Shown here in pieces: positions 9,653 to 26,531 of a stretch of DNA of 47,359 nucleotides. Positions within the stretch are counted from its first letter, which is position 1. The number at the start of each line of letters is the position of its first letter. The position numbers were made by a program, and so were the translations under genes. The notes under the pieces are model-generated. The model saw only the letters and a list, made by a program, of their open reading frames with translations. It was not told where the DNA came from and searched no databases. Source of the DNA: Candidatus Woesearchaeota archaeon (GTDB lineage Archaea; Nanobdellota; Nanobdellia; SCGC-AAA011-G17; DATDVL01); the NCBI GenBank assembly GCA_964365915.1, contig CAYIRJ010000004.1:1-47359 (forward strand), in the 5' to 3' direction.

Positions 9653-10060
9653 ATGCAGTATGACCTCCAGTTGATTGGCTATCTCAATACTTTTGAATCC
9701 CTAACCCGATCGAAAGTGAAGGATGTGTTCTTTGATGCTACGGAGACCTTGGTGTTTGTGATGCAGCCAGGAGAGATGGGAAAAGCCATTGGCAAGAAAG
9801 GCAGCAATGTGAAACGCTTAGGAAACTTGCTGAAGAAGCGCATTCGCGTTATTGAATTTTCTTCTTCTGCCATTGATTTTGTTAAAAATTGCACGCTGCC
9901 CTTGATTCCGAAAAAGATGGTGCAGGAAGTGGATACTATCACTATCACCATGGAAAATACGCAACAGAAGGCTATGCTGCTGGGAAGGAACAAAAGCAAT
10001 TTCTTGAATATGCAGAAGATAGTGCAGAGATATTATCCGGTGCAGCTGAAAGTGTTATAG
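9653..10060 (+). CDS. nusA: archaeal NusA-like transcription termination/antitermination protein (KH domains)
   Basis: 135 aa. KH signature GKAIGKKGSNVKRL. In the canonical position after rpl30e. Confidence 0.85.
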   Translation: MQYDLQLIGYLNTFESLTRSKVKDVFFDATETLVFVMQPGEMGKAIGKKGSNVKRLGNLLKKRIRVIEFSSSAIDFVKNCTLPLIPKKMVQEVDTITITMENTQQKAMLLGRNKSNFLNMQKIVQRYYPVQLKVL

Positions 10061-11266
10061 AAATATATCATCCTCAGCATCGTAGTCCATTCCTAAGGCC
10101 TTTGTGAATTTTACTTGGTTTTCCTTGATCTGCAGTTTTTGCAGTGCCTTGTTCCTTATTTGTCGAATTCTTTCTCGTGTCACGTTTCCCTCGATTGTAC
10201 CTACTTCTTCCAATGTTCTTTTTTCTCCTGTAAGATACAATAATCTTATTATTCTTTTTTCTCTTTCTTTTAAAGAAGTTTTATCAAGTGCTTGAATAAT
10301 CATTTCTTTATCATAGACTAAAATATTTTCCCTTATCCTTTCTTGGTAATCATGGCAATCTCTTTTTTCCAAATAATCAACTATTTCTTGATCTTGTTGA
10401 TTGTGCTGAATATTTTCTTTTGCTGGAGTTAAGTCCTGCTTAGCTCTGTCATCTAATGTCAACGTTCGATGAAGATTCTGATCTTTGGGTTCTTGGTAAA
10501 GAGTGTTTATTTCTAGATTTACAGGATTCAAAGCCTTGCATATTAATTCAGTTTTTTTATCCGCAATTTCTTCTCCTCTTATTACCTTTTCTGCCCTTAG
10601 GAATAAAAAAGAATCTAGATGCACTGCTGCATAGGAATAGTTATGATAATTTTCACTCATTACACCAAAAAAGGCAGCTCTATACACTGCTGTGTATCCT
10701 GGATGTTTTTCTGCTTTTCTCACGAAATTAATAATAGATATAGAAGCCCGCTGTATGAGATCTTCCAATGGTGGTGATTCTAAATTCCTTGATTTTCTAT
10801 AGCGAATAAATGATTTTCCTGCCTGCGTGGCTGTATGCAGAAAATACGTCTCCATAAATCGTTGCATCTCTTGTTCAGAATATCCTGCTTCTTTCAACGC
10901 TGGAGCAATATGCCCTCGATAATGATGTACAAATGTTGCATGGTATCTTTGATTTACTTCTTCTTGCGTGGCAGATGGGTGCTGCTGTAAAAATTTGAGA
11001 AAGTTCCTTTTTCTTTCATCCCAGACTTTCTCTGACAATTGCCCTTTTCCCCTATTCCAAGCTGATTTTGAAATGCCTACATCTTTTTTTGCATTGTTAA
11101 TTCTCAACCGGTAGAACTTTTTGAGAATGGATTCTAGTCCTGCTTTCCTTACATCCCTTATGCTCGCTCCTTGATGACTTGCTAAATAGTCATAAAATTC
11201 TGTTAATCCTCTTTCCCAATATGCGTAATCCTTCTGTACCTGTTTTTGCTCTGATATAGTAGTCAT
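10055..11266 (-). CDS. sigma-70 family-like protein (region 2-like and region 4 HTH)
   Basis: 403 aa. The C-terminus LKEREKRIIRLLYLTGEKRTLEEVGTIEGNVTRERIRQIRNKALQKLQ is the classic sigma-70 region 4.1/4.2 signature. LEDLIQRASISIINFVRKAEKHPGYTAVYRAAF resembles region 2.1-2.3. The gene is AT-rich (15/60 G+C at 10201-10260). Confidence 0.8.
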   Translation of the reverse strand: MTTISEQKQVQKDYAYWERGLTEFYDYLASHQGASIRDVRKAGLESILKKFYRLRINNAKKDVGISKSAWNRGKGQLSEKVWDERKRNFLKFLQQHPSATQEEVNQRYHATFVHHYRGHIAPALKEAGYSEQEMQRFMETYFLHTATQAGKSFIRYRKSRNLESPPLEDLIQRASISIINFVRKAEKHPGYTAVYRAAFFGVMSENYHNYSYAAVHLDSFLFLRAEKVIRGEEIADKKTELICKALNPVNLEINTLYQEPKDQNLHRTLTLDDRAKQDLTPAKENIQHNQQDQEIVDYLEKRDCHDYQERIRENILVYDKEMIIQALDKTSLKEREKRIIRLLYLTGEKRTLEEVGTIEGNVTRERIRQIRNKALQKLQIKENQVKFTKALGMDYDAEDDIFL

Positions 11267-11287
11267 TTATCTCTTGTCATTCATTTT

Positions 11288-11306
11288 CTTTTTAAGACTT
11301 GTGAAC
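11288..11306 (-). promoter_or_regulatory. TATA box plus shared upstream motif for the sigma-like gene
   Basis: Minus strand reads GTTCACAAGTCTTAAAAAG. The TATA centre is about 26 nt upstream of ATG 11266. The motif recurs at 26553-26569. Confidence 0.45.
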
Positions 11307-11308
11307 TT

Positions 11309-11722
11309 TTAGAATTCCATAACGTGAGGAGATTCCTTTATTTCCTCATTAGCAATCAGTGGAGCTGGTTCCCTACGATACACTCTTCCTTTTGCAATCA
11401 GTTTCGAAGACTCTTCAGGGTGCACTAAAGGAGGATGTTTATACCGTACTTTGACAGCATCATTTTGATACAGTACTGTTCCCTCTGCTTGTAAAATACA
11501 TACCAACCCCTCATCAAGTCCTGCTAGTGGAATATGCCATCCTAAATGAGTTTTTACAGAAGCGAACTGGATACTTTGATTGGGATATGTACATACATAC
11601 CAAAATTTTCCTTCCTCCTCACCCCTTGTTATTCCTCGTGTGATAATGGTCAGAATTTCATTTTTCTTTACTGTCCTTAATACTTCTTCTAATGCAGAAA
11701 AGACCCCCATATGTGACTTCAT
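11309..11722 (-). CDS. hypothetical protein (137 aa), directly upstream of the sigma-like gene
   Basis: Long ORF on the same strand as the sigma-like gene and in the same AT-rich insert. No family recognised. Confidence 0.55.
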   Translation of the reverse strand: MKSHMGVFSALEEVLRTVKKNEILTIITRGITRGEEEGKFWYVCTYPNQSIQFASVKTHLGWHIPLAGLDEGLVCILQAEGTVLYQNDAVKVRYKHPPLVHPEESSKLIAKGRVYRREPAPLIANEEIKESPHVMEF

Positions 11723-11787
11723 ACGTGACTTATTAGGCGTTATGAGTATAAATACTTAATGTCTACCAAATAAAAAATCAGCACAAT

Positions 11788-11797
11788 CTTTATAAAT
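11788..11797 (+). promoter_or_regulatory. TATA box (CTTTATAAAT) for rps12
   Basis: Centre lies about 28 nt upstream of ATG 11820, which fits a leaderless transcript starting at [11 protein letters not shown]. Confidence 0.45.
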
Positions 11798-12257
11798 GGC
11801 TTTCAGAAATTATTTTCTTATGTCTGGAAAATCCAATGGATTATTTGCTGGAAAGCGCTTGAAGAATCGGAGAAAACAATTTCGGTGGAACTCTAAATGG
11901 TTCACTAGGAAAACACTGAATCTTAAGGAGAAAGCAGATCCTCTGGGAGGAGCTTCGCAGGCTAAGGGAATTGTTTTGGAAAAGACACAGCGGGAAGCGA
12001 AACAGCCAAATTCAGCGATGAGAAAATGCGTTCGCGTTCAGCTTCAGAAAAATGGAAAGATCATCACTGCATTTGCGCCAAGAGATGGAGCCATTAAGCA
12101 GATTGATGAGCATGATGAAGTCATTGTTGAATGCATTGGTGGTACTATGGGAAGGGCGAAAGGAGATTTGCCTGGTGTGAGATGGCAAGTGATCAAGATT
12201 AACGATCAAAGCTTGGATGCCTTACTGAAAGGCAAGATTGAAAAGGGACGACGATGA
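11796..12257 (+). CDS. rps12: 30S ribosomal protein S12 (uS12)
   Basis: [24 protein letters not shown]...[25 protein letters not shown]. The true start is probably ATG 11820 (see TATA spacing); the ORF-track start at 11796 overlaps the TATA box. Confidence 0.93.
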
Positions 12258-12844
12258 AGCTTTTTGGTAGATGGGATGTTGCTGGAATCCAGGTGGCTGA
12301 TCCTGGGCTGAAGGAGTACATTAATTTGAGAGCAATGCATGTGCCCCGCATGGCAGGTAGAAATATGAAAGTAAGATTCTGGAAGAACAAGTACACTTTA
12401 GTTGAACGCTTCATGAACAAGCTGATGGTGCCTGGGCATAAGGGAAAAAAACATCTCTTGAGTTCGGGAAGATGCGGAGGAAAGGGATTGACTTCTGTTG
12501 CTCTCACCTTGAAAACTTTCCAGCTTGTGGAGCAGAAGACCAAGAAAAACCCTATAGAAATTTTTGTGAAGGCTGTTGAGAATGCTGCTCCGCGCGAGGA
12601 TATTACTACTATTGAATATGGGGGTGCAAAATACCCGCATTCTGTTGACTGTGCACCACAACGCAGGATTGATATTGCCCTTCGCTTCATGATCCAGGGC
12701 AGCTACGGAAAAAGCTATGGCAAGAAAATTAAAGCGCATGAGGCTTTGGCAGATGAAATTATCAGAGCATATCAGAGTGATGGAAGGAGCTTTGCCATCT
12801 CCAAGAAACTGGAATTGGAACGGCAAGCTGATGCTGCGCGATAA
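12254..12844 (+). CDS. rps7: 30S ribosomal protein S7 (uS7)
   Basis: 196 aa starting [29 protein letters not shown] overlap with rps12. Confidence 0.93.
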
Positions 12845-13267
12845 TTACTCTTCTTCGATCCGTTTTTTCTCTACTCTATATCCAGCATATCGAAAAATAG
12901 ACTGATACTCTTTTTTACATACACTGCGTCGTGGTGATTGTTCGGGTTTTGGTTGATGGAGAAGTTCGTCAAGACTCTTGAGATTATAGTCCCATAATTT
13001 ACTTATTCTTCCTTGCGCAGCAAGTTCATTAAAAATTATTTTTATATTCTCTTCAGCATATACTCTCTTGTATCTTTCCCCTATACGTCCCAACATTTTT
13101 GCAATTTTTTCGTCTAGATACTGTACATAGGGAGCAAGTCTCCTTTCTAATCCTCCCCTTCTGCATCCTAATTGGAGTGCCATAGCTTTTACTTCTGGAA
13201 GGACATAGACCAACGTTTTCCCTTCCTGCGCTAATTGTTCTCGATACTGACGTAAACTTTCTGTCAT
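12845..13267 (-). CDS. hypothetical protein (140 aa) inserted between rps7 and EF-2
   Basis: Long ORF with its own TATA (revcomp of 13288-13298) about 25 nt upstream of ATG 13267. Its stop abuts the rps7 stop (TAATTA). No family recognised. Confidence 0.55.
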   Translation of the reverse strand: MTESLRQYREQLAQEGKTLVYVLPEVKAMALQLGCRRGGLERRLAPYVQYLDEKIAKMLGRIGERYKRVYAEENIKIIFNELAAQGRISKLWDYNLKSLDELLHQPKPEQSPRRSVCKKEYQSIFRYAGYRVEKKRIEEE

Positions 13268-13337
13268 ATGTTACCATTATTAAGAGACTCTTTTTAAACA
13301 TTATGCATCAGGAAACGTTTCCTTTCAGTGTTGAAAA

Positions 13338-13349
13338 GGTTTTTAAATC
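13338..13349 (+). promoter_or_regulatory. TATA box (GGTTTTTAAATC) for EF-2
   Basis: Centre lies about 28 nt upstream of ATG 13372; no SD sequence in between. Confidence 0.45.
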
Positions 13350-13371: not shown

Positions 13372-15576
13372 ATGGGGAAAGCTACCACTATTGAAGATCT
13401 TAAGGCGTTGATGAAGAAGCCTGATAATATCAGGAATATCTGTACTTCAGCACACATCCATCACGGCAAAACGGCATTAACAGACAACCTTTTAGCAGCT
13501 GCTGGACTGATGAGTGAAAAGGCAGCAGGCAGTCTAGAAGAAGGCATGGCTACTTGGCAGCACAAGGATGAGCAAGAACGATTAATGACTGTGGATGCTG
13601 CGAACGTGAGCATGAGCCATGAGTATGAGGGGCAATCGTATTTGATTAATCTCATTGATACTCCTGGACACGTTGACTTTGGGGGCAATGTAACAAGGGC
13701 CATGCGCGCCATTGATGGTACGATTGTTTTGATTTGTGGGGTGGAAGGGATCATGCCCCAAACCGAGACTGTAATGAAGCAGGCCATCCGCGAACGGGTC
13801 AAACCAGTGTTGTTCATCAACAAAGTAGACAGGATGATCAATGAATTGAAATTGACTCCTGAGCAGATGCAGGAGCGATTCGTGAAACTGGTACTTGATT
13901 TCAACAAGTTAGTGGAAAATATTACAGAAGATGAATTCAAAGAAACATGGAAAGTTAACATTTTGGATGGTAGCGTGGCATTTGGATCTGCACGGGAAAA
14001 CTGGGGATTGAGCATTCCCAACATGAAGAAAAAAGGCATCACCTTCAAACACATCATTGAGCAATACACTTCAGGAAAACCCAAAGAGGAGATTACTGAC
14101 TGGTTCTGGAAGAACGCTCCTCTTTATGAAGTCATACTCGACATGGTGATTAAACATTTGCCGAATCCTCTGATTGCACAGCAATATAGAATTCCGCACA
14201 TCTGGAAAGGAGATATTCAAAGCCGTTTTGGGCAGGATCTGGTGCACTGCAATTCTGAGGGAAAAATTGCCTTTGTCATTACAAGAATTGTGATTGATCC
14301 GAAATTCAGCAGGGAGATGGCTGCAGGAAGGTTATTTTCTGGAACCATTAAAGATGGCATGCAGGTCTGGCTGAACAACGCCAAGCTGCACCAACGGGTA
14401 GGCCAAGTATTTCTCTATAAAGGAACAAGGCCTGAGCAGATTGGAGAAGCTGTTGCGGGGAATGTGATTGCCTTGGGAGGGGTTTCTGGATTTGCAGGAG
14501 AGACGATTACTTTAGAACAGGAGCAGCCGTTTGAGGATATGAAACACATCTTTGAACCTGTCATTACCAAGAGCATTGAACCTATGAAACCTCAAGATCT
14601 GCCGAAACTCGTAGAGATCCTGAAAAAAGTGAGCAAGGAAGATCCTTCCTTGAAAGTCACGATTAACCTGGAAACGGGAGAGAATTTAATTCACGGTATG
14701 GGAGAGTTGCATTTAGAGATTATTGAAAATAGGATCAAGGATGAGCGCGGTTTCCAGGTGAAGACAGGAGAGCCTATTGTTGTGTATCGAGAGACTGTGC
14801 AAAAGCCTTCTGTGGAAATGGAAGGGAAATCTCCGAACAAGCATAATAAATTCTACATTACTGTTGAACCTCTGAGCAAGGAATGGTACACATTAATAAA
14901 AGAAGACGTGCTCACAGGAGGAAAAATGAAGAAAGGCGATGCCGAGGCCTACTTGAAACTGGAAAAGGCAGGTATTCCTGTAAAGGAAGCAAAGAAAATC
15001 AGAGATGTCTACAATGAAAACGTGCTGATTGATGACACGAAAGGAATTGTGGCTATAGGAGAAGTGCAGGAACTGATTAATGAAGGATTTGAACAAGTGA
15101 TGCGCGAGGGTCCCATTGCTCGAGAGCCGTGCGTAAAATTAAAGGTATTTATCAAAGATTGCAAGCTGCATGAGGATGCAATCCATCGAGGGCCTGCTCA
15201 AGTGCTGCCTGCGATCAGAGAAGGTATCAAAGCTGCGATGGTGGATGCGAAGGCACTGCTCTACGAGCCGTACCAAGTTATTCTGATTGAGTGTCCCAGT
15301 GATTTCATGGGAGAAATCAACAAATTGGTTTCGAACAAGCGGGGTCAATTATTCGATATTGAGCATAAGGGCACAGAGATCTTAGTAAAATGCAGGATGC
15401 CGGTGGCTGAGATGATTGGGTTAGCTTCTGATCTGAGAAGCGCAACTGAAGGGAGAGGTACCTATTTCATGGTGGATCAGGAATTTGACAAGGTTCCTGG
15501 GGACTTGCAGGAAAAAGTGGCACGAAAGATTAGGGAAAGAAAAGGTTTGAATCCTGATCAAATGAACCTGAGCTAG
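13372..15576 (+). CDS. fusA: translation elongation factor aEF-2
   Basis: 734 aa. G domain AHIHHGKTALTD, DTPGHVDF, NKVDR. The diphthamide-site context HEDAIHRGPAQ is intact. Confidence 0.96.
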   Translation: MGKATTIEDLKALMKKPDNIRNICTSAHIHHGKTALTDNLLAAAGLMSEKAAGSLEEGMATWQHKDEQERLMTVDAANVSMSHEYEGQSYLINLIDTPGHVDFGGNVTRAMRAIDGTIVLICGVEGIMPQTETVMKQAIRERVKPVLFINKVDRMINELKLTPEQMQERFVKLVLDFNKLVENITEDEFKETWKVNILDGSVAFGSARENWGLSIPNMKKKGITFKHIIEQYTSGKPKEEITDWFWKNAPLYEVILDMVIKHLPNPLIAQQYRIPHIWKGDIQSRFGQDLVHCNSEGKIAFVITRIVIDPKFSREMAAGRLFSGTIKDGMQVWLNNAKLHQRVGQVFLYKGTRPEQIGEAVAGNVIALGGVSGFAGETITLEQEQPFEDMKHIFEPVITKSIEPMKPQDLPKLVEILKKVSKEDPSLKVTINLETGENLIHGMGELHLEIIENRIKDERGFQVKTGEPIVVYRETVQKPSVEMEGKSPNKHNKFYITVEPLSKEWYTLIKEDVLTGGKMKKGDAEAYLKLEKAGIPVKEAKKIRDVYNENVLIDDTKGIVAIGEVQELINEGFEQVMREGPIAREPCVKLKVFIKDCKLHEDAIHRGPAQVLPAIREGIKAAMVDAKALLYEPYQVILIECPSDFMGEINKLVSNKRGQLFDIEHKGTEILVKCRMPVAEMIGLASDLRSATEGRGTYFMVDQEFDKVPGDLQEKVARKIRERKGLNPDQMNLS

Positions 15577-15793
15577 AACTGAAAAACGAAATATTAATAA
15601 AGGGATTTTCTTTCATTTTTATATCTTTATTCCTGTACGATTGGGTTTTCTTTTTCCCGCAGGAAAGGAGATTTTCTCCTCATCGTTTTCTTAGAGGGTT
15701 TTTGCTCTTTTTTACTCTTTAGTAGTTACAAAACGAAAACTTTAAATATGCAAAGGATTTATTTCTCTTCATAACTTAATGAGGTGTTGACGA

Positions 15794-16117
15794 ATGAAAC
15801 TGATTACAGCAACGGAAAAAGTTGAAAGAATTCTTAATAAAGAAATTAGTGAATATAGAGTTGGGCATAGCTCTTATCAATCTGATTTTGCACGTGCCCT
15901 CCATCTTCGCGAACAGCTCTTCTCTTGTGTTGATCGCATTCTTGATGGGGACACAGAAATCCCACAGATTGTTGGCGTTATTCAACGTGCTTTAAATTAT
16001 GGACCTGAGGTAGAAAATCTTGTTTTACAACTTGGTGCTCAGAGGAATACTACTGTTAGTACTGTCTTACCTGCACCTATTGCAGAAGCAGTTTTTCACT
16101 ATCGACGGAAGAGGTGA
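15794..16117 (+). CDS. hypothetical protein (107 aa)
   Basis: ORF preceded by GAGGTG (15781-15786). No family recognised. Confidence 0.5.
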   Translation: MKLITATEKVERILNKEISEYRVGHSSYQSDFARALHLREQLFSCVDRILDGDTEIPQIVGVIQRALNYGPEVENLVLQLGAQRNTTVSTVLPAPIAEAVFHYRRKR

Positions 16118-16617
16118 TAATCATGAAGGAAAACGGTGCTGTTGCTGTTCTTGATCAATTTCCTTTTCATTTTGATGATGAGAGATATGTTTCTAGTGTT
16201 GGAGGCACTTATTGTGTTCCTTTACACACTTCGACGCTACGATGTTTCAGTAAGAAGGAAAGGATCTCCCTCCTTCGAGATAGAGAGGAAAGTCTTCAAG
16301 CAAGTCTTTTAGATGCGCGCCACGCATTCGCCAATGATGTTTTAGAACGATGGGTATGCAGAACTTATATTGCCCGACCGGAAGGAGGATCAGAACCATC
16401 TCTGGAAGATGCGGGCGACACTCGTTTATTGTGGTATATTATCGAGGAAAACACGGAACTCCAGTCACGCCTTGAAGATTTCAGAGAACTGAAAGAGGGT
16501 CCTGTGAATCGTGATAACCTTCTGCAAAGACTTTCCGGCTATATAAGGGGGAACTACGACTCGCTCGTTAATGAAGTTTTGGATACTCTCGCAGAAAAAA
16601 ACAGACTTACTGTTTAA
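16114..16617 (+). CDS. hypothetical protein (167 aa; likely start ATG 16123)
   Basis: GAGGTGA (16111-16117) sits 5 nt upstream of ATG 16123 and overlaps the upstream stop, so the two genes are coupled. No family recognised. Confidence 0.5.
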   Translation: MIIMKENGAVAVLDQFPFHFDDERYVSSVGGTYCVPLHTSTLRCFSKKERISLLRDREESLQASLLDARHAFANDVLERWVCRTYIARPEGGSEPSLEDAGDTRLLWYIIEENTELQSRLEDFRELKEGPVNRDNLLQRLSGYIRGNYDSLVNEVLDTLAEKNRLTV

Positions 16618-16729
16618 ATTTATCCTTTTCTTTTTTATTCATGCTAAAAGGATTGAAAAATTCTTTTATGGGGTTAAGATCACAAGTTTTAAATATCCCC
16701 TAATTCTGGCAATTTCCCCACGAGGTTTT

Positions 16730-17120
16730 ATGGTTTATCTTTTCAAGAACGATCGAGGAAGATTTACCTACAAGTTTCATACTCTTCTTGAAGGCAGGCC
16801 TCTGCGTGTGGGTGATATTTATCAGGAACTTACCGCTATTCAGGAATGCCTTGGTCAGCCCTGGCATGAGCACCCTGTTGCGCGACGCAGGATGGGAAAA
16901 GGTGAGATTACGCTTCCGGTATGGAACCTTGTCTCTTGTCATCCTCCGTTATGAACGGAACAAAACTCTTGTTGATGCCACTTTGAAAGCAGAAAAGTTT
17001 CTATCGCTTGACACTCCCGCGCTTCTTGCTCTTGAAGATTATTTCTTATCTTATCAGCACAAAGGAAAAGTCCTCCAACTTCTTCGAGAAAAACCTGTAT
17101 CTGCGTTTTCTGCGCTTTAG
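16730..17120 (+). pseudogene. hypothetical gene apparently split by a +1 frame change near 16860-16875
   Basis: Protein-like sequence runs in the frame of ATG 16730 (MVYLFKNDRGRFTYKFHTLLEGRPLRVGDIYQELTAIQECLGQPWHEH). It then continues in the +1 frame (..MSTLLRDAGWEKVRLRFRYGTLSLVILRYERNK...SAFSAL*). Each frame looks like junk outside its own half. Confidence 0.35.
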
Positions 17121-17671
17121 AATTCTTTCCTTTCCCTGAGATGCTTTATCAGTCCTGGAGGAAGCAAGGGCTTTCCCTTCCTGAGAACGTAAGTGAACGG
17201 CAGCTCTACAGATTCTGTTGTGTTCAAGTGAATTTCAATACCGTCTCGGAATTGAAGATCGTTCAGCTTCTTTCCCTGCATAATCTTTCTTGCCACATAG
17301 ACTGCAGTGTCTGTAGAGAACTGTTTCTTTCCTAGGTTTCTTGTGGGATAGGGGAGCTTTAAGGAAAGCTCTTTTTTGGTTCTTGCACGCGGAGGATGAT
17401 CACCTAAAATGCCCCCTAAAATCAGCGTATCAAACCTGTCCTGCGGGGATAATGTTTTTTGAGCAGACGGATCTAACACATATGCATTTGGGAACTTCAG
17501 CTGGAGAATTGATTTTTTATATACTGTCCCCCACTTTTGGAGTTCCCTTTTTCCCTTCTTGATATTGGTGAAGATAACATTTTCCTTTCCCGCAATCTTG
17601 GAAATGTGCTTGTATTCTATCAGGCACCAGGGAAATAATTCAGGTTCACGATGCTCGACGATGAACTTCAT
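17117..17671 (-). CDS. SPOUT-class SAM-dependent methyltransferase, DUF431/Sfm1 family
   Basis: 184 aa. MKFIVEH.EPEL..W.L.EYKHIS, GGILGDHPPRARTKKEL, STDTAVYVARKI and ELPFTYVLRKGKPLLPPG align closely with yeast Sfm1/YOR021C as I recall it. Confidence 0.82.
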   Translation of the reverse strand: MKFIVEHREPELFPWCLIEYKHISKIAGKENVIFTNIKKGKRELQKWGTVYKKSILQLKFPNAYVLDPSAQKTLSPQDRFDTLILGGILGDHPPRARTKKELSLKLPYPTRNLGKKQFSTDTAVYVARKIMQGKKLNDLQFRDGIEIHLNTTESVELPFTYVLRKGKPLLPPGLIKHLRERKEF

Positions 17672-17836
17672 GGTTGCTCTTCAATAAAAATAAGCAAGCA
17701 AAGGCAAGGTTTATAACAATATTTATCTTGTTCATTTAACTTAACAGTAATGAAATCTCAAGAAATAGAAACGCTTATAAATCATCATCTCCGCATCTCC
17801 ACACATCTTTATCCTAATAAACATGAGGTAACCACT

Positions 17837-19123: not shown

Positions 19124-19332
19124 CAGCGGTTCTTTTCTTATTTTAATCTCTTGTTTTTTAATTCTGCTTCTGTTAACATCATGTTAATTTATGAAGACTT
19201 AGTGATTGTAACATAGTTGCCCAGCTTTGCACATAAATCTATTTAAATCAGTTTGTCTAAAGAATATGGAAGGAATATGGATAAAATGCATGATTCATAT
19301 GAACCGCAGGATATTGATATTATATAACCAAA

Positions 19333-19917
19333 ATGGTAAAATTATTTTTAGTGCGCCACGGGGAAGCAATTGAAGCAGAGCCTGAGCCTATGCTTTCGAA
19401 AAAAGGTAAACAACAAGCAAAGGCTGTTGCAAAAAGGCTTGTACAATTTCGAATAACGAAAGTATATACGAGTAGCGCACGGCGAGCTTTGGAAACTTAT
19501 GAGCTATACAAAAAATTGAAACCTGATATTCCGGTTATAGTTTCTGATAAGTTAAAAGAAGTATATCGTACATTAGTTGGTGGTCCTGAACGTGAAGGTA
19601 CATCTCTCGATCGTGCAAAGAAAGATATGCAACGTGCAGATACTATCTTAAAAGAGATCCTTGATGATACTAAAGAAGATGATATTGTTCTTTTGTTTAT
19701 TCATGGAAATTTAATTCGATATATTCTTGCTCACTTTTTACAAATAAGTAAAGTGAACTTATGGGAAGAGTTAGAGATTCATGATGCTTCAATCTCATTA
19801 ATCGAAATTGTTAACAACAAACCACAAATCCGCTTGGTTAATTCCATCGAACATTTAGATAAAAAAGAAGTTGATGAATTCTACAATTGCTATGCAAAAA
19901 CAGAATATCTTTCTTAG
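19333..19917 (+). CDS. histidine phosphatase family protein (phosphoglycerate-mutase-like)
   Basis: 194 aa. N-terminal LFLVRHGEA (RHG catalytic motif) and a later IHGNLIRY block. Confidence 0.75.
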   Translation: MVKLFLVRHGEAIEAEPEPMLSKKGKQQAKAVAKRLVQFRITKVYTSSARRALETYELYKKLKPDIPVIVSDKLKEVYRTLVGGPEREGTSLDRAKKDMQRADTILKEILDDTKEDDIVLLFIHGNLIRYILAHFLQISKVNLWEELEIHDASISLIEIVNNKPQIRLVNSIEHLDKKEVDEFYNCYAKTEYLS

Positions 19918-21086
19918 GAAAGAAGTGTAACTAAAGATTTTGAAGGGCTATCATTAAATTGGTTAATTCCTCGTATTCGTCCTTGCCTTCCCATTGTTGC
20001 TCGTAATTCTGAAAAATTGTATAGTTCAATCGTTTTTGCCTCTAATGCTCCTCTTGATTTTGGATTGATAAGATAACCTGTTGTTCCGTTAACTATTGCT
20101 TCAACAACTCCTCCACTGTTTCCTCCTATAACTGGTATTTGATGCATGCCAGCTTCAAGAAAGACAATTCCAAAACCCTCTACATCATTAGGTGGAATAA
20201 ATTCTGTTGGTAAAACAAAAATATCAGCAGCACCATAGTGCGTTGCTAAACCCACGTTATCAACTTGATCATGAATGTGCACTCTTTCTTCGAGATTATG
20301 AAGATTTATGGTTTCTTGAATATGTGCTTTATTTGGACCATCACCTACGATGGCATAATGGATGTTAGGTATAGCTGTTCGCAGATTAGGAAATATCTCA
20401 ACAAAGCTATACTGACCTTTTCTGTCTATGAGACGCCCTACAGAGAGCACAACAAAATCATCTGGAGTATAACCAAGTGCTATTTTACAATTTGCTTTAT
20501 CTTGTAATGTTGGCGTGCTTAAAGAAGGCGGAAGTAAATGGAATCTTGCATGAATACCTTGATGTACCAATAAATTTTGCGTGAATTTGCTAATACAAAA
20601 AACACGATCTGCATCTTGTAATACAGTTTTGTAAAATAGAGCTTCATCTTGTGTGTATCCTTGATGTGCCCCTGTCGAAGAGCGGTTTTCATTAACAATA
20701 GCATTATCAATGAATACTTCTTTTGCATGGGTAATAATTCCTGTTCGTACAGAAGGTTTATATATTTTATAATCTCGACCAGCTTCTGGATGTGAGCGGA
20801 GATAACCAAAAAGTGCTATATCTGTGTTTGTTTGTCTTAAGATGTCAACAATAGTACGATTCGTTTGTCTTCTGGGAGGAGTTTCATGTTCAAAGGGAAA
20901 AAAATCGGTCCTATACACATCAAATGGTAGACTTTGATAATCTGTAACTTGGCCAATATTATTAGGAACAATAACTTGAAAACGCTCACTTGCAAAATAC
21001 TTTCTATAAATTTGCATTAAGTAAGTTGCTATGCCTCCCTTCATAGGATGGAAATCTTGTGTGATCAGTGTAACACTTTTTACCAT
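19914..21086 (-). CDS. glycosyltransferase family 4 (GT-B, retaining type)
   Basis: 390 aa. EGFGIVFLEAGMHQIPVIGGNSGGVVEAIVNGTTGYLI is the GT4 E-x7-E region. Confidence 0.85.
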   Translation of the reverse strand: MVKSVTLITQDFHPMKGGIATYLMQIYRKYFASERFQVIVPNNIGQVTDYQSLPFDVYRTDFFPFEHETPPRRQTNRTIVDILRQTNTDIALFGYLRSHPEAGRDYKIYKPSVRTGIITHAKEVFIDNAIVNENRSSTGAHQGYTQDEALFYKTVLQDADRVFCISKFTQNLLVHQGIHARFHLLPPSLSTPTLQDKANCKIALGYTPDDFVVLSVGRLIDRKGQYSFVEIFPNLRTAIPNIHYAIVGDGPNKAHIQETINLHNLEERVHIHDQVDNVGLATHYGAADIFVLPTEFIPPNDVEGFGIVFLEAGMHQIPVIGGNSGGVVEAIVNGTTGYLINPKSRGALEAKTIELYNFSELRATMGRQGRIRGINQFNDSPSKSLVTLLS

Positions 21087-21090
21087 AGGA

Positions 21091-21915
21091 TTATTTGAAT
21101 ACCTCTCGGAATTGTCTTAAAGATGTTTTCGCCTCCCTTGGATGTCCCCATCGATGACGATCATATGCCTGAATTAAAAAGAAAATACCTCTGCCGAAGC
21201 GTAATTCTTCTTGACTTAAGTGAGATTTTCCTTGAAAATATTGATCAAGGTAAGTTGCTTGTTCTGTTCCATTACGACAAACTCGAAGAAGAGGTCTTGC
21301 TAAATCGAAGGCGACAGGTCCATCTAATACATGTTCTAAATCAATAGCAACGAGCCTTTGTTTTGTTTTAACAATATTGCTCAGCGAATAGTCTCCATGA
21401 ATCAACCCATAAGTAGAAAATTGAGGTGTAGGCAATTCATTTTTTCTTACTAACTGATGCTGTAAAAGATAGGTGTAAACACGATCAAGTTTTTCAGCCC
21501 AACCATCTAAATTATAATTATCTACCTGGTGGAATGCTGCTTGAAGCTGTGCGACAGCAAAAATATCTAGGGTAGGTAAGGTCTCTAACACCTCTCCATC
21601 GATAAATGTAGTTACAAATCCTCGTTCAAGTATTCCTACAATAGGTGAAGAAATTATTCTTGATCTATTTTTCTCATCGAGTCTTTGTTTATATTGTGTT
21701 ATATTTGACGTTCTATCTGTAGGATGATAAATAAACGTTCCATTTGCTGTTGTAAATAATAATGGGCTTTGTCTTGTTCCTGCTTTCCATCCCGTATTAA
21801 TAACTTGGTGATGAGTGATTTCTCCAAAATTTCTTGATAATGTAGACATTACTTCTCTTACATTATTTATACTCATTTGAATAATCCTCGGTATGTTTGG
21901 AAGATAATATTCCAA
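21091..21915 (-). CDS. aminoglycoside/choline-kinase-like phosphotransferase (APH fold)
   Basis: 274 aa. GLIHGDYSLSNIV (HxDxxxxN) and VAIDLEHV (IDxE) motifs. Confidence 0.7.
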   Translation of the reverse strand: MEYYLPNIPRIIQMSINNVREVMSTLSRNFGEITHHQVINTGWKAGTRQSPLLFTTANGTFIYHPTDRTSNITQYKQRLDEKNRSRIISSPIVGILERGFVTTFIDGEVLETLPTLDIFAVAQLQAAFHQVDNYNLDGWAEKLDRVYTYLLQHQLVRKNELPTPQFSTYGLIHGDYSLSNIVKTKQRLVAIDLEHVLDGPVAFDLARPLLRVCRNGTEQATYLDQYFQGKSHLSQEELRFGRGIFFLIQAYDRHRWGHPREAKTSLRQFREVFK

Positions 21916-23060
21916 TCAAATAATGTTTCTGCTCGTATTCTTCCCTTTACTCCCATAGCACGTCGTGTTGTAGGGTTTTGGATAAGCTCAACAAGCCTAT
22001 TGGCTGCTGTTTCATAATCTCTTTCAGATACTAAGAACCCCGTTTCACCATCTTGCACTATTTCAGGGACGCCTCCTACTCGAGAAGCGATGATGGGTAG
22101 ACCTGAAGCAGACGCTTCACAAAGACATCTTCCCATAGTTTCCGTGTGAACATAAGATGAGCCTCGTTCATGCTTTTCTAAGTGGATAGGCATATGTAAA
22201 AAAATATCTGCTGTCCTGAAATATGCAGGCATATCTTCTATTCTTCGTGCACCAAGTAAATGCACATTATTCAATCCACGATCAACCACTATCTTTTCGA
22301 TAGTTTCTCGTTCTGGACCATCACCTAAAATATGATATTGAAAATGGACATCTTGCCTTGTTGCTTGTTCTATTGCTCGAAGTGAATATTCCCAACCTTT
22401 AAAATCAACAAGTCGTGCAGCAGTTAGTATGTTAACAGTTTCTCTTGAGGATGATGTAGTGGGATAAAAAGTATTACAGTCAACACCACCAGTAACTTTA
22501 ACAAGTTTGTCAGAATTCACGCCGACCGATATTGTTCTATGATAAGAGTATTGACTATTGACTATGAATCTGTCTACGTATTTATTTACTAAGTTTACAA
22601 CTCTTGCTCGTGAAGCCTCTAAGCTTCTTGTAGTGTCTGTTTCATCTCCAATCCATCCAGCCACAATATCATTTCCACCTGATCGAACAATAACTTGTGT
22701 TTGTGGATATGTTTGCTTGATAATTGCAAGCGAAGGTAGCCATGTTGGACTATTTAAGTAGAAAATAGTGTTGTTAGGATCTTGATTTGCAAGGAGTATT
22801 ACTGCATCTTTCTCAAAGTTGCCAGTTAATGATTTGTTTACCAATACTTCTAAATCTTTATTTGCAAGTGCTTGTGCTGGTCCATGTGAACTGTCGCCTG
22901 GAGCTGGAACGCCGTCAGTGACTAAATCTTTAACAAATATCTTACTTATAGGAAATTCTTGATGCCCAGCAAATGCACGAGCGAATTCATACGCATGTGT
23001 TTCCATACCACCGATATGGCTAGAGAATTTTGGTGAGATAAAGCAAATTTGCTTAACCAT
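21873..23060 (-). CDS. glycosyltransferase family 4
   Basis: 395 aa. The N-terminus ICFISPKFSSHIGGMETH and CEASASGLPIIASRVGGVPEIVQDGETGFLV are typical of GT4. Confidence 0.85.
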   Translation of the reverse strand: MVKQICFISPKFSSHIGGMETHAYEFARAFAGHQEFPISKIFVKDLVTDGVPAPGDSSHGPAQALANKDLEVLVNKSLTGNFEKDAVILLANQDPNNTIFYLNSPTWLPSLAIIKQTYPQTQVIVRSGGNDIVAGWIGDETDTTRSLEASRARVVNLVNKYVDRFIVNSQYSYHRTISVGVNSDKLVKVTGGVDCNTFYPTTSSSRETVNILTAARLVDFKGWEYSLRAIEQATRQDVHFQYHILGDGPERETIEKIVVDRGLNNVHLLGARRIEDMPAYFRTADIFLHMPIHLEKHERGSSYVHTETMGRCLCEASASGLPIIASRVGGVPEIVQDGETGFLVSERDYETAANRLVELIQNPTTRRAMGVKGRIRAETLFDWNIIFQTYRGLFK

Positions 23061-23698
23061 TAAAACTCACCTCGTTCACGAAGAATATCGTCAACAGGTA
23101 CGCCCTTTTTAATATCTTCTTTTATCTTTTGTTCTAAATCGGCAACTGCAACACATTGTGTGAGAACTTCACTTTCAATTGTTTGAGGAATAACAGCGAC
23201 CGCATCATAATCACCAAATAATAAATCTCCTGGCTTGATAGTACATTCTCCAATAATGACTGATATATCTAATTTATCAACAATACCTCTCTTTTTAATA
23301 TCTCGAGCATAGTTGGTTCGCGCAAAGACAGGATAACACATATTTATGGTTTCAATAGTATCTCTTGTACAACCATCAATAATTGTTCCATCAACACCCC
23401 GATATTGAGCTAATGTTGCCATGAGTTCCCCAAAAAATGCCATTTCTTTGAAACCATTTCCAACAACAAGAACATCTCCCTTATTTAATTGCTCAAGAAA
23501 ATGGGGTCCTCTATAAACCTCTCGGTGGTCTTCACCATTAGTAATCGGTTTAAGAGACATTGGTCTTGCTCGCCCAAATAAACGTGCTTTAACAAAGTTA
23601 GGTTTAATGTCTGAAGGAAGTAATTGGTGTGTATACCCCATTTCGTCTAAAACATCAGAGATTATTGCTGAAGAGAGACGTGTTTTATAATCAATCAT
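23060..23698 (-). CDS. RraA-like / class II pyruvate-aldolase-like protein
   Basis: 212 aa. SSAIISDVLDEMG, GDVLVV.., FFGELMATLAQYRGVDGTIIDGCTRD and PVFAR follow the RraA/HMG-aldolase family pattern. Confidence 0.75.
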   Translation of the reverse strand: MIDYKTRLSSAIISDVLDEMGYTHQLLPSDIKPNFVKARLFGRARPMSLKPITNGEDHREVYRGPHFLEQLNKGDVLVVGNGFKEMAFFGELMATLAQYRGVDGTIIDGCTRDTIETINMCYPVFARTNYARDIKKRGIVDKLDISVIIGECTIKPGDLLFGDYDAVAVIPQTIESEVLTQCVAVADLEQKIKEDIKKGVPVDDILRERGEF

Positions 23699-25112
23699 GG
23701 TTATTCACCCTTTTAAGCCCACGCATGACTGTTTCTGCAAATGCAAAATCTTCTTCAGTATTGATGTCAATACTTTCTATTAATTGGATTGGAAGAATAT
23801 GCGGGGTTTTTCCAATGCGGGATTTACCACTGAGAAGCGCAGCTCTTCTGATAGCATATAAACTCATAGTTTCAATAATGGTTGCGGGAAGGTCAACACT
23901 GTTAGGAATATGGATTGGATCATAGTTTCTTGGTGTACCATCTGCATTCCAAAGATATATCTTTTCTCTTCGTGCAGCAAAGACACTATCATGTTCTTTT
24001 CTTACTGTCAGACGAAATACTGCTTCATCAATAGTACTTCGTAAGAGAAATGGCGCTGTAGGAAGTACCTGCACATATATATCAGCATCTGGAACTCGTC
24101 CTGCCTCGTACAAAAGCAGTTGATTACCGTCAGTGCTATTAGAGGCAAGGCTCTCTGGTCGACGTAATTCTTTATGTCCTCGTCCACTTGCAATATCAAA
24201 TACGATTTGTGATTCACTATCTAAGTAAACGTCTTGAATAGTGTGGCAAGTGAGTAAGGTATCTAAGACATGAAGGAGTAATGGTTTATCACCGAGCTGT
24301 CTAATATTTTTACTTGTAACTCGAGTGCTTGTTCCTTTTGCAGGCACAAATGCTACAACATGATATTTTTGCGCAATTTTTCCTAATAAATCTTCTTGTA
24401 CAAATACATCTAATGAACTTGTTGCATCGTTGACAATACGTCGTCCTGCTTGTTCAAATTGTCGTTGCGCTTCTTGCATATAACTTATAATGAGTGCACG
24501 ATATTCAGGATGCCCAGGTAAACCTTTTTGGATAATGTGACTTTGTGTTCTTGGAAATATTAAATTTGGGAAGTCAGTATTTCGATGAATTTCATAAGCG
24601 TGACCATCTTTTCCCCAATCGTGGTTTGTGCTCAGATCCATGCCTATAATATTTACTCTATTAAATCCAAGGAAGTATGCAAGTTGTAATGCGTCATAGG
24701 CTACTGTTTTTCCTCGCCAAAACCCCTCTTGTAAAGGATTTTGTGCAAAACGAACAACTCCCTGCGGATGACATTGCGGTACAAAGTAGGTTCGCTCATC
24801 TGCTAATTCTTGAGGAAATGTTTTGCAGGCTCCAGCAGCAATAATCTTTATAGTTGGTGTGCCTCTCAATACTCGTTCATACACATCTCTGAACTGGGGA
24901 ATAACATCTTTGTCAGCAACAATGTTAAATGTAGGAGTTACACCTGATTGCCTTAAGATAAGTGGGCTGAGGTTAAGACCAATGGTTACTTCATTTCTCA
25001 GCGCTGAGAGGTCCCTATAGGCTAAACTTGGGCCCGTTCCTGCAATAAACCCATGCTTTCCTCTGAACTTATTTTCCAAGCTAAGAAGGGCTTCAAGACT
25101 ATTTGTAACCAT
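23691..25112 (-). CDS. fusion protein: N-terminal DUF115/MptE-like (Maf-type) domain plus C-terminal CMP-sugar-acid cytidylyltransferase (NeuA/KdsB-like)
   Basis: 473 aa. The N-terminal half (GFIAGTGPSLAY...NIVADKD) resembles DUF115. The C-terminal half (VAFVPAKGTSTRVTSKNIRQLGDKPLLLHVLDT...VQVLPTAPFL...SIDINTEEDFAFAE) matches the acylneuraminate cytidylyltransferase pattern. Confidence 0.7.
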   Translation of the reverse strand: MVTNSLEALLSLENKFRGKHGFIAGTGPSLAYRDLSALRNEVTIGLNLSPLILRQSGVTPTFNIVADKDVIPQFRDVYERVLRGTPTIKIIAAGACKTFPQELADERTYFVPQCHPQGVVRFAQNPLQEGFWRGKTVAYDALQLAYFLGFNRVNIIGMDLSTNHDWGKDGHAYEIHRNTDFPNLIFPRTQSHIIQKGLPGHPEYRALIISYMQEAQRQFEQAGRRIVNDATSSLDVFVQEDLLGKIAQKYHVVAFVPAKGTSTRVTSKNIRQLGDKPLLLHVLDTLLTCHTIQDVYLDSESQIVFDIASGRGHKELRRPESLASNSTDGNQLLLYEAGRVPDADIYVQVLPTAPFLLRSTIDEAVFRLTVRKEHDSVFAARREKIYLWNADGTPRNYDPIHIPNSVDLPATIIETMSLYAIRRAALLSGKSRIGKTPHILPIQLIESIDINTEEDFAFAETVMRGLKRVNNHD

Positions 25113-25242
25113 TATTGGATAGTGGTTTTAATATTATATAAACCATTTGTTTTTCTAACATTTGTGGTAGGTTTCTTTATCAATCACATGCATTCGACTT
25201 AAGAATCATCACCCGTTATTGCGACAGAGAGGCTCACACAAA

Positions 25243-25254
25243 GTTTTATAAATC
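25243..25254 (+). promoter_or_regulatory. TATA box (GTTTTATAAATC) for rps10
   Basis: Centre lies about 27 nt upstream of ATG 25275; no SD sequence. Confidence 0.45.
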
Positions 25255-25274
25255 ACTTTTTAGAAGATATTCTT

Positions 25275-25583
25275 ATGCCTCAAGCAAGAATCAACTTATC
25301 ATCCTTAGACATTGGAAAATTGAATGAGATCTGTACCAGCATTGTCGACATTGCAGATAAAACGAAGACCCAAATTTCCGGACCGATTCCTCTGCCGACG
25401 AAGCGATTGCGCCATACGGTGAGAAAAAGCCCGTGTGGAAATGGAAAAGCTTCCTTTGATAATTTTGAGATGCGCATCCATAAGCGCTTGATCTACATGG
25501 GCATTGATGATCGAGCATTGCGATTAGTCATGAGAGTTCCTATTCCTGAAGGGGTCCAAATCAGTATTGCAAGCGTTGAGTAA
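25275..25583 (+). CDS. rps10: 30S ribosomal protein S10 (uS10)
   Basis: 102 aa. ..GPIPLPTKRLRHTVRKSPCGNGKASFDNFEMRIHKRLI. Confidence 0.93.
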   Translation: MPQARINLSSLDIGKLNEICTSIVDIADKTKTQISGPIPLPTKRLRHTVRKSPCGNGKASFDNFEMRIHKRLIYMGIDDRALRLVMRVPIPEGVQISIASVE

Positions 25584-25632
25584 ATTAATGCTGTAGTGCT
25601 CTTAATTCTTCCTTTATTCCCAGCTGGGTTTA

Positions 25633-25655
25633 ATACCCCGCAGCTCTGCTGCGGT
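25633..25655 (+). repeat. IS left-end hairpin repeat ATACCCCGCAGCTCTGCTGCGGT
   Basis: Identical 23-mer at 26119-26141. Stem 25638-25644 pairs with 25648-25654. Confidence 0.85.
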
Positions 25656-25687
25656 ACTATTATAACTTCAGCAGACATTCCAGTTTA

Positions 25688-26119
25688 ATGGATGTTCAGC
25701 ATGCGTGCCATTGTTCATATAGGATTCGCTATCACATGGTGTTTGTGCTCAAGTATAGGAAAAATCTCATCAGCGATGAGATATTTGAATTTCTGAAAGA
25801 AATTTGCAAAGGGATTGAACAGCGTTACTTCATCAAGTTCGATGCTCTTGGCAGCGATGGAGATCATCTGCATTTGGTGATTGAAGCTGCTCCTCGCTAT
25901 GCTCCATCAAATGTTATGCAGATCTGCAAGAGCATTCTTGCAAAGCAAGTCTTCAAGCAATTTCCTGAAGTGCGTGAAGAGCTGTGGAATGGAGAGTTCT
26001 GGAGTGATGGAGGACACATTGATACTGTTGGAGATGGCAGAGGACTGGATGCAGTCAGGCAATATGTAGAAAAGCAAGGTAAGAAATCAGATCAGCTCAC
26101 ACTCTACTCGTTCGTCTGA
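25688..26119 (+). CDS. tnpA: IS200/IS605 family transposase TnpA (Y1, HUH)
   Basis: 143 aa. YHMVFVLKYRK, HUH motif GDHLHLVIE, and a C-terminal ..VRQYVEKQ tyrosine helix. Confidence 0.9.
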   Translation: MDVQHACHCSYRIRYHMVFVLKYRKNLISDEIFEFLKEICKGIEQRYFIKFDALGSDGDHLHLVIEAAPRYAPSNVMQICKSILAKQVFKQFPEVREELWNGEFWSDGGHIDTVGDGRGLDAVRQYVEKQGKKSDQLTLYSFV

Positions 26120-26531
26120 TACCCCGCAGCTCTGCTGCGGTTGGGTAGTTCATTTGAGCAAATTCATTCCCGGATAGATCTTTGAGAAGAATATAATTTC
26201 CGGAAGGATCTCTTGCAAATAGTTGATACGTCGGAAGCTGTTGCGAATCTTTGATAATAAAACTTGTGGAGCCTATTGTCTGGTTTATCCTGATTTCCAA
26301 GGGGATTCCCAAACCGTAAATAATATACGAAAGCGCCGATGCAACCCCGAAATCGGATGGTCTTGCAGCAATTTCTATCCTTCTTTCAAAGTCTAAGGCA
26401 TACACCCCTTTCTTAAGCATCCAAGTCTCTCCCTCTTTCTTTTTCATTTCTTCTGCAGATGTGATGCGCTCGCGCTCAAGAAAATCCAAGATATCTTTGC
26501 TGATTAGTTTTCGCAATTGAGAAGTTATCAT
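26097..26531 (-). CDS. hypothetical protein (144 aa); the last 14 codons are encoded by the IS right end
   Basis: Long ORF with a TATA about 24 nt upstream. The C-terminal TAAELRGIRRTSRV is read from the IS hairpin and the tnpA 3' end. Confidence 0.5.
   Translation of the reverse strand: MITSQLRKLISKDILDFLERERITSAEEMKKKEGETWMLKKGVYALDFERRIEIAARPSDFGVASALSYIIYGLGIPLEIRINQTIGSTSFIIKDSQQLPTYQLFARDPSGNYILLKDLSGNEFAQMNYPTAAELRGIRRTSRV
26119..26141 (+). repeat. IS right-end hairpin repeat ATACCCCGCAGCTCTGCTGCGGT
   Basis: Identical to 25633-25655. It starts at the last base of the tnpA stop codon. Confidence 0.85.

Follow-up and report, generated by a model that had tools for sequence, protein, structure and literature searches.

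Insertions at the unit boundaries of a str/L30e gene cluster in a Woesearchaeota-type groundwater archaeon

Introduction

How does a conserved cluster of information-processing genes keep its order and orientation when other genes have come to lie between its members? The question is raised by a complete contig of 47,359 nt, analysed over its whole length and referred to here as the window, from a groundwater metagenome-assembled genome (MAG) of Woesearchaeota type (Nanoarchaeia, DPANN). The archaeal str/L30e cluster is present in the window in its canonical order, with all core genes on the + strand, and the cluster and its gene order are known from a survey of archaea (PMC10833476). It is interrupted at four junctions, nusA|S12, S7|EF-2, EF-2|EF-1a and EF-1a|S10, and an intact element of the insertion sequence family IS200 follows S10. 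We consider it likely that insertions are tolerated here at pre-existing unit boundaries of the str/L30e cluster, with occasional lateral transfer.

The EF-2 and EF-1a proteins are closest to those of MAGs labelled Candidatus Nanoarchaeia/Woesearchaeota, with 89% and 87% amino acid identity, respectively. Exact-protein look-ups traced proteins identical to those of the window to contigs of a single origin, well H51 in the Hainich groundwater (0.1-µm fraction), and the strain-level comparison comes solely from the replicate contigs obtained in this way. Gene identities were assigned by Pfam and NCBIfam scans of the window proteins. For the wider comparison, 160 related loci were collected around EF-2 in species-representative genomes and around EF-1a in metagenomes, and the window proteins were mapped onto them. 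The EF-1a scan of metagenomes found no contig closer than 87% amino acid identity, and the nearest relative is the one represented by loci L001 and L081 (EF-2 89% identical).

The core genes form five collinear units with other genes between them

Pfam identities and coordinates confirm the core order that a first-pass annotation of this DNA had proposed (rpl30e-nusA, rps12-rps7, EF-2, EF-1a and rps10, all on the + strand), and the five unrelated blocks it had placed at the nusA-to-S10 junctions and after S10 all lie where it put them. The first unit (685-10060) runs from rpoH (685-927) through rpoB'' (924-2405), rpoB' (2398-4200), rpoA' (4202-6811), rpoA'' (6792-9398) and rpl30e (L30e, 9395-9649) to nusA (9653-10060), with intergenic gaps of -20 to +3 nt. 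The second consists of rps12 and rps7 (S12-S7, 11820-12844), which overlap by 4 nt, and the third of EF-2 (13372-15576; 734 amino acids, without an intein). The fourth comprises the promoter, leader and coding sequence of EF-1a (17774-19123; coding sequence 17837-19123, 428 amino acids), and the fifth the TATA box and coding sequence of rps10 (S10, 25245-25583; coding sequence 25275-25583). The cluster is not contiguous: at each of the four junctions, between 0.5 and 6.2 kb of other genes separate its members.

The S12 open reading frame (ORF) opens at 11796, and its likely start is the ATG at 11820 (MSGKSNG...); the gene caller gives a protein of 145 amino acids in replicate contig L163. For EF-1a, the real start is the ATG at 17837 (MARTKPHLN), with a GAGGT Shine-Dalgarno motif at 17825-17829. 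The longer ORF of 457 amino acids that opens at the ATG at 17750 was discarded, since its 29-codon extension holds stop codons in every relative.

In other archaea the cluster splits between nusA and S12 and around fusA/EF-1a/S10 (PMC10833476), and the breaks in the window fall at these places. Genes, order and orientation are those of the survey; the pieces in the window, however, stay collinear on one strand with 0.5-6 kb of inserted genes between them, whereas the splits in the survey leave them dispersed around the genome. The window is also unlike the surveyed cases in that all four boundaries are open together and in that its EF-1a|S10 gap, at 6151 nt, is the longest among 89 relatives.

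The interrupted junctions vary across the lineage

We scored a junction in the related loci as open when the gap exceeded 250 nt and as unlinked when the partner was not found within 5 kb or more. The nusA|S12 junction is open in 6 of 18 relatives (2 unlinked), S7|EF-2 in 20 of 25 (1 unlinked), EF-2|EF-1a in 37 of 59 (20 unlinked) and EF-1a|S10 in 30 of 89 (9 unlinked). The junctions from rpoH to nusA and that of S12-S7 are nearly always tight in relatives, with median gaps of -14 to 9 nt, and within the rpoH-to-nusA unit only 2 of 56 scored instances exceed 250 nt. Fully compact clusters occur in the same lineage (L089 and L066).

The genes that fill the open junctions differ from one relative to the next. 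Clustering by similarity sorted the 217 gap ORFs with 80 or more amino acids into 184 families, of which 166 have a single member. A Pfam census covered 102 of these ORFs, the 115 from EF-2|EF-1a gaps having been clustered outside the census; it returned EF-2 inteins, scattered metabolic, transport and regulatory genes, and one DDE transposase. Most fillers are ordinary operons, for instance of an ABC transporter, an aminotransferase or regulators. No window insert gene other than SFM1, a methyltransferase gene described below, has a detectable homologue at the same junction in the 160 related loci. In the nearest relative, every gap is filled too, but by unrelated ORFs, and a permissive blastp search of the window orphans against the gap ORFs of L001 and the related locus L002 gave a single marginal match (orf167, E = 0.002). 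Most inserts are thus lineage-specific, as the first-pass annotation had suspected; the exception is SFM1, shared with L001, L002 and L011, which makes insert 3 partly old.

The transcription units probably predate the inserts

A TATA box, TTTATAAA, lies at 11789-11796 before S12-S7, centred 27.5 nt upstream of the ATG at 11820, and the same sequence occurs before S10 (25245-25252), where the distance from its centre to the ATG is 26.5 nt. EF-2 has a transcription factor B recognition element (BRE) and TATA motif (gaaaaggTTTTTAAAtc; box gaaaaggTTTTTAAA at 13340-13347) centred 28.5 nt upstream of its ATG, and the same promoter motif is found in L001. The first-pass annotation had given every core gene after a break a TATA box about 25-28 nt before its ATG. 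This describes S12, EF-2 and S10; EF-1a departs from it, its box (CTTATAAAT, 17774-17782) lying about 58 nt upstream of the ATG, ahead of a Shine-Dalgarno leader. The EF-1a promoter (CTTTATAAAYCA) and leader are conserved lineage-wide, and the frame upstream has stop codons in the relatives. First genes on the contig, including the sigma-like gene, orf140 and the first gene of the glycan cassette described below, also as a rule have a TATA box with its centre about 26 nt before the ATG, so the leaderless-type spacing is no special mark of the core genes.

Several oligo-T tracts occur 3' of EF-2 at 15600-15725, and others 3' of EF-1a at 19130-19160. Together with the internal BRE/TATA motifs and with nine - strand genes between the core units, these candidate signals argue against a single polycistronic operon across the cluster.

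Were these promoters gained when the cluster was interrupted? Strong TATA-like boxes precede S12 in 19 of 21 relatives, including 7 of the 9 with a tight upstream junction; they precede EF-2 in all three relatives with a tight junction, and EF-1a in 94 of 114, including 10 of the 11 with a tight junction. Since these boxes are also present where nothing has been inserted, the units probably pre-existed the inserts. Only S10 shows a dependence of the box on the gap, with a box in 22 of 50 tight instances against 29 of 40 separated ones (p = 0.01). The proposal that an ancestral operon was split into separately promoted units is accordingly at odds with the relatives for S12, EF-2 and EF-1a, and S10 alone links promoter and separation.

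A glycan cassette has been inserted between EF-1a and S10

The longest insert (insert 4, 19320-25156, 5.8 kb) is a six-gene glycan cassette, encoded on the - strand except for the His_Phos gene. From left to right, Pfam and NCBIfam scans identify a His_Phos gene (19333-19917, +), a GT4 glycosyltransferase (19914-21086, -), an APH-type kinase (21091-21915, -), a second GT4 glycosyltransferase (21873-23060, -), an RraA-like aldolase (23060-23698, -) and a fusion of an MptE-like (DUF115) domain with a cytidylyltransferase (23691-25112, -), which has its own TATA box at about 25135-25142. From this domain content, the cassette plausibly makes a cytidine monophosphate-activated sugar of the ulosonic acid type and transfers it onto a surface glycan.

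Through the best homologues of the cytidylyltransferase fusion, the whole six-gene block was found in the same order and orientation on other Nanoarchaeia contigs. Contig L170 aligns to window positions 19320-25156 as a single collinear blastn block at 85.7% nucleotide identity, and L173 aligns at 78%. The flanks of the cassette in L170 and L173 are wholly different from those in the window: methyltransferase, peptidase S66, NUDIX, HAD and PHP genes stand there, not EF-1a and S10. The similarity ends at the two outward promoters of the cassette.

The left edge can be placed at nucleotide resolution with a replicate contig, L168 (3520-4397), in which sequence from two co-occurring strains has been joined and 185 nt of EF-1a appear twice. 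The tail of L168 matches the window at about 90% identity over the 3' end of EF-1a, and at 99% in the final 97 nt, which end at window position 19321. Beyond this position it continues as an unrelated ORF (MDKMHDLYEPQDIDIEKWLKRK...) with no recognisable function, and the window instead matches the L170 cassette from 19322. In the window a stump of 16 codons (MDKMHDSYEPQDIDII and a stop codon; 19277-19327, +) is left of the gene that continues in the co-occurring strain. The identity up to 19321, the unrelated sequence after it and the stump together argue that 19321/19322 is a true recombination breakpoint at the left edge of the cassette and that the EF-1a|S10 junction has been modified at least twice.

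With sharp edges, another context elsewhere and absence here in the co-occurring strain, the cassette is a genuine, discrete insertion. Measured as a genomic island, it has an atypical composition, discrete edges, absence in a relative and another context, the right edge being defined against L170 only. The GC content of the locus is 0.35 in L170, 0.34 in L173 and 0.416 in the window overall, and that of the cassette is 0.37 in both the window and L170; the L170 and L173 loci are far closer to the cassette in composition than the window is. The cassette proteins are 80-87% identical in amino acid sequence to those of L170; for comparison, the best-conserved core genes are 75-79% identical in nucleotide sequence to the nearest sampled relative, and the native SFM1 protein reaches at most 65% amino acid identity to any homologue. 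These figures suggest that the cassette was probably acquired laterally from a relative of lower GC content, and it is from them that we infer the direction and recency of the transfer.

Flexible (replacement) genomic islands for cell-surface glycosylation occur in prokaryotic populations. The cassette can be set beside them: its glycosyltransferase and nucleotide-sugar genes make up a block of low GC content that is sharp-edged, strain-variable and without mobility genes.

Are the junctions an integration hotspot?

The first-pass annotation had gone further and proposed that the junctions act as an integration hotspot. Stated as a mechanism, this would make them preferred sites for the integration or recombination of foreign cassettes, with the core genes as homology arms or with a site-specific system, and the str cluster would be the anchor of flexible islands. 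Variation across the lineage affects all four junctions, and EF-1a|S10 has apparently been hit at least twice, first by the stump gene and then by the cassette. The mosaic identity in the variant strain (about 90% at the 3' end of EF-1a and 99% over the last 97 nt) would also fit such a mechanism, as would the position of the IS200 element next to S10. In L001, the stretch 1.7-3.2 kb downstream of EF-1a (17620-19100) holds a gene with a Fic domain and a fragment of a truncated tyrosine integrase, and there is no S10 inside 5 kb.

The traces that a dedicated system would leave are, however, missing from the window junctions. Pfam found no integrase or recombinase domain in the window inserts; no att site and no direct repeats flank inserts 1-4, and ARAGORN and Rfam found no tRNA within 9653-26150 or at any junction. 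Integration targeted to tRNA genes was dropped as an explanation, the tRNAs found by Rfam lying outside the region. Nor does any element recur at the junctions of the relatives, given 184 families among 217 ORFs, a single transposase among the 102 ORFs scanned and fillers that are mostly ordinary operons.

The backbone past S10 shows the same pattern of anchors and variable segments. Synteny continues at 28003-30595, 33997-36292 and 42354-47327, and variable segments separate the conserved anchors there too: a MazE-like/APH-like pair some 2.5 kb past S10, an arrangement shared with L004, and then L10e, a PPDK-like gene, o270 and o622 in the same order as in L119, L096 and L086. The mechanistic hotspot claim is unsupported, and we regard it as unlikely. 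A narrower form of the idea is that in groundwater Woesearchaeota the unit boundaries would be preferred exchange sites, at which the near-universal, slowly evolving EF-1a, S10, EF-2 and S12/S7 genes would serve as homology anchors, so that diverged DPANN lineages could swap whole cassettes, for surface glycans among others, by homologous recombination. We put this forward only tentatively, as rather improbable; if true, the cluster would be a scaffold for flexible genomic islands, beyond mere tolerance of junk.

Core genes and inserts differ in composition

Could the inserts instead be old native genes, AT-rich from weak codon selection in lowly expressed genes, against strong selection in the core, and with no transfer at all? 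The spot counts of the first-pass annotation are exact on recount (17/60 G+C at 20581-20640, 15/60 at 10201-10260 and 29/60 at 5401-5460), and the AT-richness it read from them applies to the inserts overall but not to SFM1 and IS200. The contrast is much stronger at third codon positions: GC content at these positions (GC3) is 0.48 for the core genes, 0.29 for the inserts and 0.38 for the other 23 window genes (Mann-Whitney, core against inserts p = 5e-5, inserts against the rest p = 0.003). SFM1 (GC3 0.476) and IS200 (0.438) are native-like in composition. The six cassette genes, at 0.19-0.25, lie below every other window gene, and the GC content of the cassette block, 0.368, is lower than that of any 6.15-kb segment in the other 21 kb of the contig (minimum 0.401).

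An origin of the inserts as old native genes would agree with the GC3 range of native window genes (0.26-0.49), which reaches down to 0.26, and with L001, where core genes are likewise high and gap ORFs low. SFM1, possibly also orf167, is common to sister lineages, and the cytidylyltransferase fusion protein is widespread, with many DPANN homologues. Against this stand the unrelated genes in the same gaps of the nearest relative and, for the cassette, the lowest GC3 of all window genes and an identity to L170 above that of the core genes to any sampled relative. The other contexts in L170 and L173 and the absence in the co-occurring strain also speak against such an origin for insert 4, and the breakpoint refutes it there. 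As a general account it has, in our judgement, little chance of being right.

Insert 1 holds a sigma-factor-like gene

Between nusA and S12 lie two genes on the - strand (insert 1). The first encodes a sigma-factor-like protein of 403 amino acids (10055-11266), converging on nusA with a 6-nt overlap; the gene has its own TATA box, with the centre 26.5 nt before the ATG, and a GC3 of 0.277. The second, upstream of it and co-oriented, is a 137-amino-acid orphan (orf137, 11309-11722) without a Pfam or NCBIfam match, the exact sequence of which was found in the same Hainich population only. The promoter of the sigma-like gene (11289-11296, -) and that of orf144 (about 26553-26560, -) are nearly the same sequence, aagtCTTAAAAAgaaa and aagtCTTAAAAGaaag.

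The sigma-like protein has two helix-turn-helix (HTH)-like repeats at its N-terminus; of its sigma regions, region 2.2 is degenerate and region 4.2 is well conserved. Region 4 is recognised by the Pfam profile Sigma70_r4 (PF04545; 1.3e-10, 41 bits against a cutoff of 24.1 bits) and by a match to SigA region 4 in the PDB (8.7e-9). The NCBIfam match to the RpoD C-terminus (4.8e-13) is below the family cutoff, as is TIGR02937 (28.6 bits against 42.9), and the Pfam profile Sigma70_r2 has no match in the protein. Identity to RpoD is 29% over 236 amino acids, from region 2.2 to 4.2. In BLASTP, residues 166-225 align to RpoD region 2.1-2.3, and the aromatic 2.3/2.4 motif is not conserved. A single-sequence AlphaFold2 prediction reached a confidence score (pLDDT) of 40, and the model is unusable. 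The RNA polymerase of the host, judged from the window genes, is of archaeal type.

Sigma-70-like genes are prevalent in Woesearchaeota, where they were described as fam00359 (Castelle et al. 2021, PMC8204110). The window protein shares with them a Woesearchaeota-type host and may belong to fam00359; its degenerate region 2 and two copies of the N-terminal HTH-like module set it apart. Its homology to RpoD/SigA is clear for region 4.2 and the region 3-4 linker, and no anti-sigma factor is encoded nearby. The HTH-like module has 36 homologues among 1.84 billion representative proteins, and all those with a named source are from DPANN. In part of this family (P0133-P0168) the module is found in fusions, with Sigma70_r4, Sigma70_r2 or, in P0145, a cyclin repeat of TFIIB as the partner.

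Inserts 2 and 3 hold orphans and a conserved methyltransferase

Insert 2 is a 140-amino-acid orphan (orf140, 12845-13267, -) that converges on the rps7 stop codon and abuts it, with a TATA box, TTTAAAAA, centred 27.5 nt upstream of its ATG. It has no NCBIfam match and, in Pfam, a sub-threshold match to PhoH only; NCBIfam and Pfam scans of the five orphans otherwise gave nothing. Scans of viral contigs with the sigma-like protein, orf140 and the ORF of the variant strain returned no relatives, and a proviral origin of the inserts accordingly finds no support.

Insert 3 begins with three orphans on the + strand, orf107, orf167 and orf127 (107, 167 and 127 amino acids; 15794-16954). The marginal match of orf167 noted above is to a 169-amino-acid ORF at the equivalent position in L001, of which orf167 may be a diverged positional orthologue. 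It ends with a gene on the - strand (17117-17671) for an SFM1-like (DUF431) SPOUT methyltransferase (Pfam 1.4e-52), which occupies the same position in L001, L002 and L011. With 632 homologues among 5.8 billion proteins, the best at 65% amino acid identity, SFM1 is a conserved DPANN housekeeping gene; its presence in these relatives and the possible orthology of orf167 are what make insert 3 partly old.

Two of these genes raise the idea of functional clustering, by which the sigma-like regulator and SFM1 would lie here as actors in transcription and translation co-regulated with the cluster. The SFM1 family is annotated as ribosome-related methylases, and the gene adjoins EF-2/EF-1a in four related genomes; the nearest sigma-like homologue (835 amino acids; L178 4545-7052) also lies at the edge of a ribosomal and RNA polymerase cluster, directly downstream of rps2 and near rpoK. 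This makes only two cases for the sigma-like gene, however, and none of the 18 relatives with a nusA|S12 junction has a homologue there. Each of the two genes runs opposite to the core genes from a promoter of its own, and nothing comparable ties the glycan cassette, the orphans or IS200 to the cluster. We find this improbable as an explanation of the interrupted cluster.

An IS200 element follows S10

The IS200-type element (25628-26141, +) carries a Y1/HUH transposase gene (25688-26119; Y1_Tnp, PF01797, 1.8e-30) with the HUH-type motif HLH and a candidate tyrosine in RQYVEKQ. Direct repeats of 28 nt (25628-25655 and 26114-26141), each with a 7-bp GC-rich hairpin (CCGCAGC-TCT-GCTGCGG), bound it, and from these features it is structurally intact. 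As in the IS200/IS605 family, the transposase has about 140 amino acids, the hairpins are subterminal without terminal inverted repeats, and the element spans about 0.5 kb with tnpA only; it differs in its single copy in the 47-kb window (tblastn) and in its native-like composition. A 24-nt repeat at 39318 that suggested a second copy was not confirmed by tblastn. The element is also present in replicate contig L164, and no copy was found in the 160 related loci, at this position or elsewhere.

Inteins and tRNA genes around the cluster

The rpoA'' gene contains an intein at about 7158-8447, which accounts for its length of 868 amino acids. The intein has a LAGLIDADG homing-endonuclease domain, coincides with a dip in GC content to 0.34, and is shared by L001 and the replicate contigs. 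In other loci, EF-2 carries inteins near its N-terminus, either mini-inteins or inteins containing LAGLIDADG (L001 10001-12799, L002 3414-7211, L004, L009, L049 and L065), and L016 has two tandem EF-2 paralogues. S12 is a 684-amino-acid ORF in L004 (3398-5452), and the same arrangement is seen in L003 (about 1401-3356): an intein-like insert follows the conserved NSAMRKC and ends in ...SN|C. We know of no report of a ribosomal protein as an intein host.

Two adjacent tRNA genes lie just upstream of rpoH at 469-565 and 568-669 (+). At 97 and 102 nt, their length allows introns; they score 49 and 60.7 bits in Rfam, and ARAGORN reported no tRNA in the window.

Discussion

The preferred reading, that insertions are tolerated at pre-existing unit boundaries, can be set out as follows. 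In this lineage the cluster would be a string of separately promoted units, rpoH-nusA, S12-S7, EF-2 and EF-1a with or without S10, each held together by purifying selection. Because the boundaries would already have a terminator and a promoter, they could gain, exchange or reorder genes harmlessly, and they would gradually fill with lineage-specific material. The fillers would be of mixed age and origin. One class would be relocated housekeeping genes shared with sister lineages (SFM1, perhaps orf167), and another the orphans with their own TATA boxes (the sigma-like gene with orf137, orf140, orf107 and orf127). The 5.8-kb cassette would have arrived laterally, landing in or replacing a small gene downstream of EF-1a, and the intact IS200 element would be a further class.

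Several points weigh against this reading. The unit structure is predicted from sequence motifs: promoters and terminators were called from motifs, in spacers that are AT-rich, and the TATA score is positive at 0-20% of control genes within operons. The strain-level comparison covers the left edge of the cassette only. The organism of L170 could simply be a closer relative with core genes outside the sample, a co-occurring strain with about 90% nucleotide identity in EF-1a being known to exist; the cassette may then have a history of vertical descent plus rearrangement, which would weaken the case for recent transfer, not that for a different location. Low GC3 may come partly from low expression instead of foreign origin. 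Finally, the variability was measured at the junctions of this cluster, and other inter-operon boundaries of the genome may vary as much.

An assembly or binning chimera that joins unrelated fragments between core genes would suit a low-coverage MAG (3-5x) with one replicate contig, L168, that itself joins two strains, yet same-strain contigs from three replicate samples match the window at 99.7-99.97% identity over nusA-orf107, EF-2-EF-1a, RraA/MptE-S10-IS200 and beyond, and we consider a chimera highly improbable. The EF-1a/His_Phos joint, which has no independent same-strain contig, is supported by the window and the variant tail of L168.

Taken together, the locus is a well-documented instance of an ordinary process and presents no new kind of system or mechanism; both the splitting of the cluster and the sigma-70-like genes of Woesearchaeota are already published. 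Its value is that of a clean worked example of a conserved information-processing cluster eroding in a reduced-genome DPANN archaeon, with breaks only at the boundaries of units that probably pre-existed and with at least one filler, the glycan cassette, demonstrably inserted and shared with a compositionally different relative. For the annotation of DPANN MAGs, it is a useful reminder of how easily gene starts, leaderless promoters, introns and inteins are overlooked. For the biology of these putative symbionts, it supports an exchange of cell-surface glycan genes among them.

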